Of a DNA stretch of 64,000 nt, positions 7,179 through 39,262 are shown piece by piece. The notes beneath the pieces were generated by a model. That model ran no database searches and was not told where the DNA came from. It worked only from the letters and a program-made list of their open reading frames with translations. Location: the sequence record NC_054914.1; one strand, written 5' to 3'. Each line of letters begins with the position of its first letter. Position 1 is the first letter of the stretch. The translations under genes were made by a program, and so were the position numbers. This stretch comes from Escherichia phage vB_EcoM-fFiEco06.

Positions 7179-7505
7179 TTATACCTTAGTAATTTTCAGG
7201 TCTACAAATTTTTTCTTGCGTTGATTTTTCATGCGACGAATAGTTTTATCGGAAATTTCATGCTTTTGATAAGCTTTAGATTCTACACCAAAAGCTTTAA
7301 CATCAAATTCTGACAAGATATATTGAACCAACAATTCACGGACAGTATTGCGTCCAATCTTCTGATCATTCTGTTTCATCGTCTGATGAAGCTCTTTTTC
7401 CCATTTATCCAAAATTTGAGGAGTTACAATATCGCCTTTTTCTAGCAAAGAAACTACTTTATCATATGCGTAAGAATTAATGACGTTTTTAATTTGAATA
7501 GTCAT
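7179..7505 (-). CDS. Hypothetical protein
   Basis: 108 aa, basic C-terminus; follows the terminator at 7530-7559. Confidence 0.45.
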   Translation of the reverse strand: MTIQIKNVINSYAYDKVVSLLEKGDIVTPQILDKWEKELHQTMKQNDQKIGRNTVRELLVQYILSEFDVKAFGVESKAYQKHEISDKTIRRMKNQRKKKFVDLKITKV

Positions 7506-7974: not shown

Positions 7975-8230
7975 TGTAAACTGATTTTTTCAACTTTCTT
8001 ACTTCACCGCGTAATTGACGATTTAACTCATCTTTAACTTCTGAATCAATACCTTTCATTCTACGCCATTTATCTGAGCGAAAAATGTTTTCAACCATAT
8101 CTTTATGACTTACACCATCAGGAGCTTTACGCTTTCCGAAATAGTCATAATCACGAACTTTCAAGTCTTTACGACGATACGTTTTACCCATGGAGTTTAA
8201 TTTCCTTAGCAACTGAACTAAATGCAGCAC
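7898..8230 (-). CDS. Hypothetical basic protein (start probably internal)
   Basis: 110 aa ORF overlapping the downstream ORF. Confidence 0.35.
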   Translation of the reverse strand: MLHLVQLLRKLNSMGKTYRRKDLKVRDYDYFGKRKAPDGVSHKDMVENIFRSDKWRRMKGIDSEVKDELNRQLRGEVRKLKKSVYIDDDFDYNTSQRVAKRKSNECYRYS

Positions 8231-16349: not shown

Positions 16350-16375
16350 ATTAATCTCCTCAGTAGAAAGTAAGA

Positions 16376-16407
16376 ACATTATACCACATCCTTGTGGTAA
16401 AGTAAAC
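16376..16407 (-). promoter_or_regulatory. T4-type early promoter (-35 GTTTAC, extended -10 TGGTATAAT)
   Basis: Minus strand GTTTAC...TGTGGTATAATG. Confidence 0.55.
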
Positions 16408-20773: not shown

Positions 20774-20789
20774 ATTTGTTTTGATAGGG

Positions 20790-20821
20790 TAATAGTATCA
20801 CACTACTACCCTTCTGTAAAC
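20790..20821 (-). promoter_or_regulatory. T4-type early promoter
   Basis: Minus strand GTTTACAGAAGGGTAGTAGTGTGATACTATTACCCT. Confidence 0.55.
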
Positions 20822-22825: not shown

Positions 22826-23347
22826 TTATCCTTTCATTGAAGGTGTAACAGTTGTTAAATACTTAATCATAGCTTCAGCTTCTGATTTTGATAATGAAAT
22901 TTCTTCATTGTTTTGACGAATAGAAATAAAATCCGGATGACGGTCACCACCAGCTTTTAAAACACACATATAAGTATCAGTTTCATCTTCAATATCTGAA
23001 ATGATTGAAGCAGTTCCACATGAATGCGGTTTTTGATAAATCAATACAGCTTTTCTTCCGCCATTTGACTGTTCATAAACTTTTAATACATCAAACAAAT
23101 CACTTCTTTTATCAATAGCTAAAATGTTATTTTCATCTTCAATGTTAAATCCTTCGGATACTTCATAAAGTGTCACCCATAAATCGCCAATATCAATAAC
23201 AGCGTTCACTTTTCCATGACTTTCAAGAGCATGACAAATTTTCTTGATTTCGTCATAACTCATTTTAATAATATCATCTCCTTGAATAAGAAAGATGTCA
23301 TTTTTAAATTCAACACGAATTAAACCACTTCCACTTGAAATAAACAT
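22826..23347 (-). CDS. Hypothetical protein, paralog of 23354..23911
   Basis: 173 aa; C-terminal SKSEAEAMIKYLTTVTPSM resembles TKDEAIALKTYLDSVIPTM of the neighbour. Confidence 0.5.
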   Translation of the reverse strand: MFISSGSGLIRVEFKNDIFLIQGDDIIKMSYDEIKKICHALESHGKVNAVIDIGDLWVTLYEVSEGFNIEDENNILAIDKRSDLFDVLKVYEQSNGGRKAVLIYQKPHSCGTASIISDIEDETDTYMCVLKAGGDRHPDFISIRQNNEEISLSKSEAEAMIKYLTTVTPSMKG

Positions 23348-23353
23348 ATTTCC

Positions 23354-23911
23354 TCACTTTGAAATCATAGTTGGAATGACAGAATCGAGATAAGTCTTTA
23401 GCGCAATAGCTTCGTCTTTGGTAAATGTGACAATATACGATCGAAAATCATCAATTTGACGAATAGTTAAGACATCACCATCTTCATAGCATTTTGATAC
23501 GTTTAAAACAGTTTCATCATTCTGATTGCAAGCGTTAGTAATAATAGCATTGCAATTTTTGAGCCATTTTAAACTATGTTTTCTTTCATTAGAATAATAA
23601 AAATATTTAATCTTATCTATAAAACTATCCCAATGGATAACTGATAAACACATTGACTCACTTTTAATATTAAATCCTGGGCATGAAGAATAAAAATGAA
23701 TTTTGTGCTCATCATTGATGCTTACTATTTTATCAGTATAAGGATATTCAATTTGGGTTAAATGAATGATTTCACTAGGCGTAAAATATAGCATATCGTC
23801 TTCTTGTGTCAAACGATACATATTATTTACTTTTTCTATAGCTAATTCACCAAAAAGCGGACTAACTTCTAATACTAATCGTTTCATATTGATTCTCTTC
23901 GACTCACCCAC
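23354..23911 (-). CDS. Hypothetical protein, paralog of 22826..23347
   Basis: 185 aa; GTG start. Confidence 0.5.
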   Translation of the reverse strand: MGESKRINMKRLVLEVSPLFGELAIEKVNNMYRLTQEDDMLYFTPSEIIHLTQIEYPYTDKIVSINDEHKIHFYSSCPGFNIKSESMCLSVIHWDSFIDKIKYFYYSNERKHSLKWLKNCNAIITNACNQNDETVLNVSKCYEDGDVLTIRQIDDFRSYIVTFTKDEAIALKTYLDSVIPTMISK

Positions 23912-23913
23912 AA

Positions 23914-24018
23914 TTACATACTCCTTTGAATAATATCAATAATGTTGTTCACCAGATTATAAGTAAACATTGGATAATTATATTGAATCATCACATACAC
24001 AACAAACAAAACTTTCAT
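23914..24018 (-). CDS. Small hydrophobic peptide (about 34 aa)
   Basis: Hand-found ORF MKVLFVVYVMIQYNYPMF... preceded by AAGGAG and the promoter at 24036-24076. Confidence 0.3.
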   Translation of the reverse strand: MKVLFVVYVMIQYNYPMFTYNLVNNIIDIIQRSM

Positions 24019-24035
24019 TCTCTTCTCCTTGGCAG

Positions 24036-24076
24036 TTGACAAGATTACTATATCATAATCTTGTCAACTTGTAAAC
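24036..24076 (-). promoter_or_regulatory. Early promoter candidate within a 12-bp perfect inverted repeat
   Basis: GTTGACAAGATT...AATCTTGTCAAC palindrome; minus-strand GTTTACA upstream. Confidence 0.4.
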
Positions 24077-24241
24077 CATTAAATGACGTTTTCAATAAAA
24101 TTCTGAAGCTTTGTGTGAGCATCAACCATGATTTTCATTTCTTCTTTGGCGAAAGCTGTACCTCTTTCCCGAGAAGAACACTCATAGTCAGAAACTGCAT
24201 TAGCATATTCTTCAATTAGTTTCATTAAAAACATCTGCTTT

Positions 24242-24436
24242 TCAGTTTTCATTGTTCCACCTAATCATTTCAAGATATTGAACTAACTTAGCTTTAGATT
24301 TATCCAAATCCTTTTTAGCTGCTTCTATACCATCGTATGAATATCCTTCACAATGCTCAACTGCTAATTGATATGAATCTATTTCAATATCACGTGCTAA
24401 TTTAATGATTTTTTCAAACTGTTCGCGTGTTAGCAT
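24242..24436 (-). CDS. Hypothetical small protein
   Basis: 64 aa. Confidence 0.4.
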   Translation of the reverse strand: MLTREQFEKIIKLARDIEIDSYQLAVEHCEGYSYDGIEAAKKDLDKSKAKLVQYLEMIRWNNEN

Positions 24437-24438
24437 AC

Positions 24439-24678
24439 TTACACTCTCGTATTATGATCGATAATTTCATCAAGAAACATATCTAACGCTTCTATAGCAT
24501 TATCAACTTTAGCTTCAAGTTCTTCAGCGCCTTTATTTGCAATGCCTGCCGAAAACCAAGCAAAGTCACTAAGTTCCTCATCTGCTTTGCGAATTAAAGC
24601 TACCAATTCTTTAATTTTATCTGCTTGTTCAATGCTAGTCATTATTCCACCACATATGAAAGAGAGAATATTGCACAC
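24439..24678 (-). CDS. Hypothetical small acidic protein
   Basis: 79 aa. Confidence 0.4.
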
Positions 24679-24830
24679 GCCATATGAGTTGCAGCTTCAT
24701 CACACATATCATAACGTTTCTTAAGAAGTTCTACAAGTTCTTCACTAGTAACTTCATCCATGTCGACGAAAAAATCACCATTAATGATGACGTAGATATT
24801 TCCTTCTTGATTAAGTGCTTCAATTTTCAT
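24642..24830 (-). CDS. Hypothetical small protein
   Basis: Start moved to Met16 (RBS AAAGAGGAGAA), downstream of the promoter at 24855-24888. Confidence 0.4.
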
Positions 24831-24854
24831 GATGTTCTCCTCTTTATCCGATAG

Positions 24855-24888
24855 TTGTATAGTATCACAGCTCAAACGGAAAGTAAAC
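24855..24888 (-). promoter_or_regulatory. T4-type early promoter
   Basis: Minus strand GTTTAC...GTGATACTATAC; adjacent to the terminator at 24895-24920. Confidence 0.5.
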
Positions 24889-24894
24889 CGGTAA

Positions 24895-24920
24895 AATGAA
24901 AAAAGTCTCCCGAAGGAGAC
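24895..24920 (-). terminator. Rho-independent terminator
   Basis: GUCUCC-UUCG-GGAGAC followed by UUUUUUCAUUUU. Confidence 0.65.
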
Positions 24921-24925
24921 TAATG

Positions 24926-25312
24926 TTATTCGAGGGAAAGAAGATACTTACTCTGGTAAAACATTCCAGTAATATCATCTATCGTGCTTTGAATGGCTGG
25001 AGGCATTTCTTTATAAATGCTGTTAGATTGGTCTAGTATGCGATCAATCATTTTAATTGTGTCGGTAGGAAGTTTACTGGCATCTGGAATTGAAGGCGTG
25101 TATTTTCTACCAGAATACCCCAAATATTGCTCACCAAATTTATCAATCAAATCTGGCAATTCGGAGAAAATAAAATCGTATGCTTTGTGTCTAGCATAAC
25201 TTTTAGTTTCAAAATGCGCAGAATGAAAATAAGCTTGTGCAGCCATTAATAAACCTAAGTATTCATCTGCCTTTGAAGGTTTTCCACTTTGTGAAAAGTC
25301 GCTGAATTTCAT
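24926..25312 (-). CDS. Hypothetical protein (rI.1 position)
   Basis: 128 aa, directly downstream of rI. Confidence 0.45.
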
Positions 25313-25602
25313 TCAGTCTCCAATTTAATGTTCATAATTCTAGCGTATGATTGTGCCATCTCCGCGCCTCGTTCTATACATTCAAAATCAGAAGAGCACG
25401 GGTCATTTTTATAGGTCGTTCTCATAAAACTATAGAACTGTTCAGATGATTCTACGCTTTTATTTTCAAAAAGCATATAAACATGTCTAATACCAGATTC
25501 CATAAATTTATCAAAATGAGGATCGACATTCGCTTCAATCGATGGAGATAAAACAAATGACAATCCTAGCATGGCAAATAGTGCCGTTGCTTTTAAGGCC
25601 AT
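25309..25602 (-). CDS. rI: Lysis inhibition regulator RI (antiholin)
   Basis: 97 aa; N-terminal signal-anchor MALKATALFAMLGLSFVLSPSIEA; matches T4 RI as recalled. Confidence 0.85.
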   Translation of the reverse strand: MALKATALFAMLGLSFVLSPSIEANVDPHFDKFMESGIRHVYMLFENKSVESSEQFYSFMRTTYKNDPCSSDFECIERGAEMAQSYARIMNIKLETE

Positions 25603-31651: not shown

Positions 31652-31673
31652 TTTATCCCTCCAAGTAACTGTG

Positions 31674-31706
31674 AATATACTATCACAATTCTAGGAGAAA
31701 GTAAAC
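31674..31706 (-). promoter_or_regulatory. T4-type early promoter upstream of denV
   Basis: Minus strand GTTTACTTTCTCCTAGAATTGTGATAGTATATT. Confidence 0.55.
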
Positions 31707-38575: not shown

Positions 38576-38600
38576 TTTATTCTCCTCAGTAGTAGATAGG

Positions 38601-38633
38601 GTAATAGTATCACTACCCTATCTAAAAGTAAAC
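38601..38633 (-). promoter_or_regulatory. T4-type early promoter with 9-bp inverted repeat around the -10
   Basis: GATAGGGTA ... TACCCTATC flanks the -10 ATACTATTA. Confidence 0.55.
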
Positions 38634-39201: not shown

Positions 39202-39229
39202 TTTTATTTTCCTAATTAATTTTGATGAG

Positions 39230-39262
39230 GTAATAGTATCACTACCTCATCAGTATGTAAAC
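39230..39262 (-). promoter_or_regulatory. T4-type early promoter with 9-bp inverted repeat around the -10
   Basis: GATGAGGTA ... TACCTCATC flanks the -10; compensatory changes relative to 38601-38633. Confidence 0.55.

Follow-up and report, generated by a model that had tools for sequence, protein, structure and literature searches.

A probable PeSL cassette with a conserved RNA stem-loop upstream of mobD.2, an early gene of T4

Introduction

Why should a perfect palindrome enclose the core of a putative promoter, directly in front of a gene for a peptide of 34 residues, and does it act there as DNA or as RNA? This question is raised by positions 23,914 to 24,076 of a 64,000-nucleotide stretch of Escherichia phage vB_EcoM-fFiEco06 (NC_054914.1), a T4-like phage of the genus Tequatrovirus. 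This whole stretch was the subject of the analysis, and is called the window below. A first-pass annotation of the window, made from its letters and open reading frames, had singled out the palindrome, the promoter and the small ORF, and had proposed that the palindrome could be an operator.

One described class of phage element is built from parts of this kind. As defined in Arbiol 2010 (PMC2839356), the promoter-early stem-loop (PeSL) of phages phi1/RB49 begins with the stop codon of the upstream gene, in AT-rich sequence. An early promoter that resembles sigma-70 promoters and a stem-loop come next, and a Shine-Dalgarno sequence with a start codon closes the cassette. Five positions of the stem-loop are distinguished there, the commonest being between the -35 and -10 elements or overlapping the -10 element, and the stem-loop is proposed to terminate or attenuate upstream transcription; one G/C-rich RB49 stem-loop cut lacZ about as much as rrnB T1. 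According to the same paper, crossovers were mapped inside PeSLs, including the loop, and minicircles arise between PeSLs. For PST/T4, Comeau 2014 (PMC4122927) reports PeSLs with the promoter consensus TTTACW-N17-TAYWAT, the stem-loops being located, according to a figure legend, immediately upstream of the promoter.

Results

Genomic setting of the cassette

The segment 23300-24700 of the window is 100% identical to Escherichia phage vB_EcoM-fHoEco02 (MG781191) and to several other Tequatrovirus genomes, and 498 phage records match it at megablast level. All genes at the locus lie on the minus strand, in the transcription order tk, rI.1, rI, rI.-1, mobD.5, mobD.4, mobD.3, mobD.2a, the element, mobD.2 and mobD.1. 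The features referred to in the text are as follows, in the direction of transcription.

24830..24925, minus strand: terminator-plus-promoter unit between rI.-1 and mobD.5, a hairpin and T-run followed by a promoter
24079..24252, minus strand: mobD.2a, 57 aa, DUF7438, the gene upstream of the cassette
24070..24076, minus strand: -35 element GTTTACA, T4-early type (PST/T4 consensus TTTACW, PMC4122927)
24056..24069, minus strand: 5' arm AGTTGACAAGATTA (sense strand), which fills the greater part of the spacer (about -29 to -16)
24047..24055, minus strand: extended -10 element TGaTATAGT (TG at 24055-24054, TATAGT at 24052-24047)
24034..24047, minus strand: 3' arm TAATCTTGTCAACT, containing the predicted transcription start
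24025..24030, minus strand: Shine-Dalgarno sequence AAGGAG, 3 nt past the stem, 6 nt before the ATG and outside the helix
23914..24018, minus strand: mobD.2 coding sequence, 34 aa plus stop (ATG 24018-24016, TAA 23916-23914)
23354..23911, minus strand: mobD.1, Pfam T4_y05I_N/C, the gene after mobD.2 in the predicted unit

The TAA stop codon of mobD.2a (24081-24079) is separated by 2 nt from the -35 element, and because of this close spacing transcripts from the mobD.5 promoter would run into the cassette; the rI.-1/mobD.5 promoter is the likely source of read-through transcripts. The unit that carries this promoter comprises a UUCG-tetraloop hairpin (24904-24921) with a T-run, and then GTTTAC-N17-TGaTACTAT, GAGGAG and ATG. 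It represents the cassette type with the stem-loop upstream of the promoter.

Downstream, mobD.1 probably starts at the GTG at 23911, 2 nt past the mobD.2 stop, with the GGAG for this start located within the final mobD.2 codons (23887-23916 region, minus strand). In T4 the two genes overlap as TAATG, and the annotation of MG781191 uses a later ATG for mobD.1, at 23887. The Pfam family of MobD.1 is named 'y05I-like putative transcription factor'.

Some annotations of neighboring genes were also recorded. The T4 reference gives mobD.2a a length of no more than 38 aa, so that an apparently 'intergenic' gap of 116 bp results (2550-2666 of the extracted T4 piece), while the 57-aa ORF is intact in the window; judged from its sequence, the T4 copy appears to be frameshifted. 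Other records name mobD.2a 'Helicase loader', and the product of several mobD.x genes in RefSeq (NC_000866, NC_041919, others) is called 'molybdopterin-guanine dinucleotide biosynthesis protein MobD'. The latter looks like an annotation error by name collision, since T4 mobD is a homing endonuclease locus.

Anatomy of the palindrome and the promoter

The inverted repeat had been given as 12 bp and perfect; it is perfect, and its arms are longer, at 14 nt each with 100% complementarity (24034-24047 and 24056-24069, 8-nt spacer). None of 100 shuffles of the window reached an arm of 14 nt, the longest being 13 nt, found once. Folded as RNA, the hairpin has a free energy of -22.8 kcal/mol (z = -5.7). 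Contrary to the first description, in which the palindrome overlapped the GTTTACA element, the repeat abuts the -35 element and covers the spacer, the -10 element and the predicted start site. The 8-nt loop TGATATAG corresponds to 24055-24048, and the 3' arm begins with the T that ends the -10 hexamer (24047). The sense strand therefore reads GTTTACA, 5' arm, loop, 3' arm, GCC, AAGGAG, AAGAGA and ATG.

That a promoter lies inside the palindrome was supported by our promoter scan, which returned TTTACA-17-TATAGT, its TTTACA at 24075-24070, with TG before the -10 element and a match at 10 of 12 consensus positions; with GTTTACA, a 17-nt spacer and TGaTATAGT, this putative promoter is of the sigma-70/T4-early type. 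TATAGT departs from the PST/T4 -10 consensus TAYWAT once, at position 5. Transcription is predicted to start at about 24040 (G, 7 nt past the -10 element), within the 3' arm. A promoter is annotated at the equivalent position in phage Lutter. On the plus strand, a promoter-like match in the palindrome (TTGGCA-16-TATCAT) was dismissed as a mirror-image by-product of the dyad. The AAGGAG and small ORF of the first-pass annotation were found as described, with AAGGAG, a strong ribosome-binding site, at 24030-24025, 6 nt before the ATG that opens the 34 codons.

With G-C pairs at 5 of its 14 positions the stem is AU-rich, and the sequence after it is GCCAAGGAG. The hairpin has no U-tract in any genus compared and does not appear in the output of our terminator scan. 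Classical intrinsic termination by this hairpin is doubtful for these reasons, as the G/C-rich stem and the U-tract of a Rho-independent terminator are both lacking. An Rfam scan of 23000-25500 at E <= 1 gave nothing at the hairpin and only two chance-level matches elsewhere.

The mobD.2 gene and its product

The small ORF is T4 mobD.2 (NP_049712, UniProt P39239), and its product in the window, MKVLFVVYVMIQYNYPMFTYNLVNNIIDIIQRSM, is 91% identical to T4 MobD.2. The first-pass view that such a peptide is overlooked by annotation is correct for many GenBank records, in which the gene is unannotated, but not for MG781191, T2 and T4, in which it is annotated as 'MobD.2 conserved hypothetical protein'. 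Among the phage records listed with an identical or near-identical MobD.2, about one quarter have no feature annotated under the match, and mobD.2 is thus often dropped by automatic annotation. MobD.2 matched PHROG 3515 (function unknown) over its full length with E = 6.5e-22, and no Pfam family matched it.

A tblastn search against the phage collection found mobD.2 in 842 phage records, from genera that include Tequatrovirus, Mosigvirus, Gelderlandvirus, Winklervirus, Karamvirus and Jiaodavirus. Conservation of the small ORF in relatives, on which its reality had been made to depend, was confirmed, with length and motif kept in these six genera. Residues Y8, Q12, Y13, P16, F18, T19, Y20, N21 and V23 are invariant. 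pN ranged from 0.03 to 0.28 versus 0.14 to 0.87 for pS, dN/dS was about 0.1-0.5 where computable, and variable columns were distributed over the three codon positions as 22/8/31. Judged from these comparisons, mobD.2 is a real gene under purifying selection in six Tevenvirinae genera.

A HMMER scan of 1.84 billion cluster representatives returned only seven real MobD.2 clusters, six of which are 34-50 aa in length, and in none of the seven is MobD.2 a domain of a larger protein, the seventh (124 aa) being a gene call that reads through the cassette. The cluster result therefore describes a family that, on present sequence collections, is small and restricted to T4-like phages. The 124-aa call comes from a Mosigvirus-like contig and runs from the upstream gene via the cassette into mobD.2, the upstream TAG being CAG there; it is probably a gene-calling artefact, and could be a real fusion. 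In Escherichia phage FL08 (PP400785), a one-base insertion in an A-run frameshifts mobD.2 (630-760 of the extracted piece), which is either a sequencing error or a pseudogene. An extended ORF of 42 aa with a TTG start (23914-24042) was considered for the window and rejected, as the TTG is located in the 3' arm, ahead of the point where transcription is predicted to begin, and is not preceded by a ribosome-binding site.

The description of the peptide as hydrophobic holds to a moderate degree (GRAVY 0.68); the best 19-residue Kyte-Doolittle window scores only about 1.0, under the usual transmembrane cut-off of 1.6, and strong hydrophobicity is limited to about 10 N-terminal residues. A single-sequence AlphaFold model consists of one helix, residues 2-33, with a pLDDT of 93, whose C-terminal half is amphipathic. 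The membrane-active role that the first pass had in mind for such peptides is speculative. A T4 omics study placed mobD.2 in the early RNA class and in no proteome class (PMC9697503, supplementary table S2), the supplement giving the class only, without expression values. A literature search on mobD.2 found no papers.

Conservation of the hairpin across genera

The arms upstream of mobD.2 are AGTTGACAAGATTA / TAATCTTGTCAACT (14 bp) in Tequatrovirus, and upstream of its orthologues they are TTGGTAGGACTA / TAGTCCTACCAA in Mosigvirus, ATGATGAGATA / TATCTCATCAT in Gelderlandvirus and GAGAGGGCAT / ATGCCCTCTC in Winklervirus. These arms are unrelated in sequence, range from 10 to 14 bp and vary in G+C, and their pairing is kept. 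Presence in relatives, named in the first pass as a test of the palindrome, was therefore found for the structure, in four genera, and not for the arm sequence. In all four genera, a GTTTAC-like -35 element precedes the stem, TGnTAnnnT occupies the loop, and a ribosome-binding site and start codon follow. The cassette of T4 mobD.2 equals that of the window but for one loop difference.

We counted pairs over the inner 10 pairs of 14 distinct sequences. Pairing was found in 98.6% of cells, with both-sided changes in 8 of 10 pairs, and the covariation score was reached by none of 500 shuffles (slid controls were 31-69% paired); the alignment was built from hairpins already recognised, which favours structure somewhat. 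MAFFT had misregistered the Winklervirus and Gelderlandvirus hairpins, so one loop base was removed from two Gelderlandvirus rows and Winklervirus CHI14 was dropped, its independent perfect 10-bp stem being counted apart.

The changes that are not fully compensated lean to one strand. On the sense strand, G·U is found in eight cells, which would read C·A on the other strand, against one C·A (PhAPEC2) and one U·U (L031), a comparison that comprises few independent events. G·U intermediates occur in L035, L012 and many Tequatrovirus sequences, and one pair can be followed from G-C in most Mosigvirus through G·U in L035 to A-U in L034, where the replacement is fully compensated. In all four genera tested, the hairpin is part of the minimum-free-energy fold of the read-through RNA. 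The turnover of the arms with pairing kept, together with the G·U bias to the sense strand, favours selection on a sense-strand RNA hairpin.

In Karamvirus and Jiaodavirus there is no intergenic region, and mobD.2 is coupled directly to the upstream gene. Since these genera keep mobD.2 with neither promoter nor hairpin, the cassette is dispensable for the gene.

Further copies and module boundaries

An inverted-repeat scan found the same architecture at 38593-38624 (minus strand) and 39223-39252 (minus strand) of the window and, in T4, upstream of dmd. A relaxed census added 20786-20812 (minus strand) of the window and the T4 promoters of motB (7179-7202) and motB.2 (8176-8203). Weaker examples of the same design were seen at 16372-16393 and 31667-31690, both on the minus strand. 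Our first promoter census, which set 5 out of 6 matching -10 positions as its minimum, was too strict, and the notion that the mobD.2 promoter is the sole one with an inverted repeat was overturned by the inverted-repeat scan and the relaxed census (-10 TACTAT). Stems of at least 8 bp with G·U allowed occur in the census at background level (7-23 in shuffles), so only long stems were counted. Most of the window's strongest promoter-like sites have no inverted repeat round the -10 element.

The further cassettes of the window consist of GTTTAC and arms round a TGaTACTAT-type loop, followed by a ribosome-binding site and ATG. Those at 38593-38624 and 39223-39252 lie in the internal-protein locus, where the ORFs begin with MKTYQEF or MKTFKEF. 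The T4 dmd copy (NC_000866, 20570-20605, minus strand) is 37 kb from the mobD.2 cassette of T4 and is identical to it at 36 of 39 core positions, with two of the three differences forming a compensated pair and with unrelated flanks. Between Tequatrovirus and Mosigvirus, nucleotide homology spans exactly 23917-24076, that is, the ORF and the cassette up to the -35 element, and the upstream genes differ.

Discussion

Assignment to the PeSL class

We consider it probable that the element upstream of mobD.2, an early gene of T4, is a PeSL cassette, and very probable that it combines a PeSL-type promoter with a hairpin that functions in sense-strand RNA. The parts stand in the order described for PeSLs, with an upstream stop, an early promoter, a stem-loop, a Shine-Dalgarno sequence and the start of a small gene, and every sequence-level feature by which the class is defined is found in the mobD.2 cassette. 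Its stem-loop overlaps the -10 element, one of the two commonest geometries in phi1/RB49. Like PeSLs, it belongs to a hyperplastic region (nrdC-tk), recurs elsewhere in the genome and marks a point where the homology of one phage to another stops. Anatomy, conservation, covariation, coding constraint, repeated copies and module boundaries were all observed directly in this comparison.

There are also differences. The mobD.2 stem is AU-rich, whereas the RB49 stem is of polyG/polyC. The geometry given in the PST/T4 legend, with the stem-loop upstream of the promoter, is not that of mobD.2, which may therefore not be the type catalogued for the T-even phages. Finally, the PeSL reporter tests concern RB49/phi1 copies, the one experimental terminator test in the literature having used a G/C-rich RB49 stem-loop, while the promoter and terminator activities of the mobD.2 cassette are predicted from its sequence, with the early class of the T4 RNA as indirect support.

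The putative promoter fits the T4 early promoters, which have an UP element, a GTTTAC -35 element, TGn and a TATAAT -10 element (PMC2988021): mobD.2 has GTTTACA, a 17-nt spacer, TG at -15/-14 and TATAGT, with five of six matches. Its position and orientation suit an early gene, and the T4 RNA class is early. The rI.-1/mobD.5 unit, with a terminator followed by a promoter, shares with the mobD.2 cassette an intercistronic hairpin at the end of one unit beside the promoter of the next. However, the hairpin of that unit is G/C-rich, has a UUCG loop and a T-run and lies upstream of its promoter, whereas the mobD.2 hairpin is without a T-run and encloses the -10 element.

Alternative explanations

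If the palindrome were a DNA operator for a dimeric regulator of the embedded promoter, as the first pass had suggested, its perfect dyad symmetry, centred on the -10 element, would be accounted for, and MobD.1 would be a candidate regulator, having T4_y05I_N and T4_y05I_C domains and being encoded in the same predicted unit as mobD.2. However, a bound sequence should persist, and the arms of the four genera have no sequence in common and differ in length (10-14 bp) and G+C with pairing kept. Where only one side has changed, the result is in most cases G·U on a single strand, which is neutral for RNA and yet would weaken one half-site. Extra half-sites in the window do not exceed chance, and several other early promoters have the same architecture with unrelated arms. 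MobD.1 is not linked consistently to the hairpin: in Winklervirus CHI14 the 1.5 kb downstream yielded no y05I-like protein, and in Gelderlandvirus Melville there is only a C-domain protein, four genes downstream of the mobD.2 homologue. Given the turnover of the arms, the bias to G·U and the want of further sites, we rejected the operator and hold it to be highly improbable. The same very low probability is given to a translational switch of the type of T4 e, soc, 49 and I-TevI, in which a long transcript hides the ribosome-binding site and a short one is translated. As in those hairpins (PMC3014915), the promoter of mobD.2 is embedded in the DNA that codes for the helix, the promoter's own transcript would lack the 5' strand, and long and short transcripts differ in structure. 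In the T4 examples, however, the ribosome-binding site is sequestered and the embedded promoter is late, whereas the Shine-Dalgarno sequence and AUG of mobD.2 are outside the helix and its promoter is early. Predicted accessibility of -14 to +3 in the read-through RNA versus the promoter's own transcript was 0.45 vs 0.36, 0.61 vs 0.60, 0.40 vs 0.36 and 0.49 vs 0.44 in the four genera, and sequestration was rejected, as the ribosome-binding site is no less accessible in the read-through RNA.

The repeated copies could also be read as a mobile recombinogenic DNA cassette, with a hairpin or cruciform in DNA and an incidental RNA structure. The near-identical paralogue 37 kb away in T4 and the homology blocks between genera that stop at the cassette agree with this, as do the PeSL minicircles and crossovers within the loop described in PMC2839356. 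But the sense-strand G·U bias and the series G-C, G·U, A-U point to selection at the RNA level, and recombination needs identity between copies rather than intramolecular pairing, so it fails to explain why pairing is kept amid sequence turnover; we regard this explanation as improbable. Less remote, although still unlikely in our judgement, is a hairpin for RNA stability or processing, which, after a nearby endonucleolytic cleavage, would protect the 3' end of the mobD.5-mobD.2a message or the 5' end of the downstream one. RegB is a candidate nuclease, with the GGAG in the ribosome-binding site of mobD.2 as its target. This enzyme cleaves GGAG between the genes of early mRNAs, helped by A-rich sequence on the 3' side and blocked by structure (review PMC3014915), and in the window GGAG, followed by AAGAGAA, stands 5 nt past the stem. 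Selection on a sense-strand RNA helix agrees with such a role, and, with no U-tract, termination is not obviously encoded. On the other hand, the GGAG is not conserved, Melville having AGAGGAU, and the lower downstream expression in the published PeSL test fits attenuation as well.

Proposed mechanism

From the sequence we infer promoter activity, a start site and attenuation for the PeSL-type cassette, which would then work as follows. Host RNA polymerase would start at the strong sigma-70 promoter of the T4-early type, with the predicted +1 near 24040; no genome-wide map of T4 start sites was found in the literature. As this start falls within the 3' arm, a transcript made from the promoter itself would contain just part of that arm and could not fold the hairpin. 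It would have an unstructured leader of about 22 nt with AAGGAG, and would code for MobD.2 and, closely coupled to it, for MobD.1. Both arms would be present only in RNA that enters the cassette from the mobD.5 promoter via mobD.2a, and this RNA would fold a hairpin of 14-15 bp directly past the mobD.2a stop codon. In line with the role published for PeSLs, the hairpin would weaken or stop the message that comes from upstream, and the downstream module would be expressed at the level set by its own promoter. The conserved cassette of about 40 bp may serve in addition as a recombination joint between gene modules. As for the hairpin itself, the chance that it terminates or attenuates transcription, as opposed to having another role at the RNA level, is in our estimate a little below even.

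A further reading is that the stem-loop is no terminator but an element selected in sense-strand RNA, through which read-through transcripts and promoter-proximal ones would meet different fates, for instance if it shields the 3' end of the upstream message once RegB or an RNase has cut at the adjacent GGAG. MobD.2 could in addition be a functional, Tevenvirinae-specific early small protein with a host-directed role. The arm turnover via G·U intermediates and the purifying selection in six genera are compatible with both ideas, which we put forward tentatively and hold to be on the whole rather unlikely.

Significance

Both the element type, PeSL, and the gene, mobD.2, are already known, and the significance of the locus is modest: the gene had been annotated in T4, and the cassette belongs to a class whose regulation and recombination have been described. 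Two points may be of some use to T4 specialists. mobD.2 is conserved and under purifying selection, yet it is unannotated in many deposited T4-like genomes. For the PeSL class, the compensatory change in four genera, with its G·U bias to the sense strand, provides comparative evidence that the stem-loops are selected as RNA structures, even where they have no U-tract.
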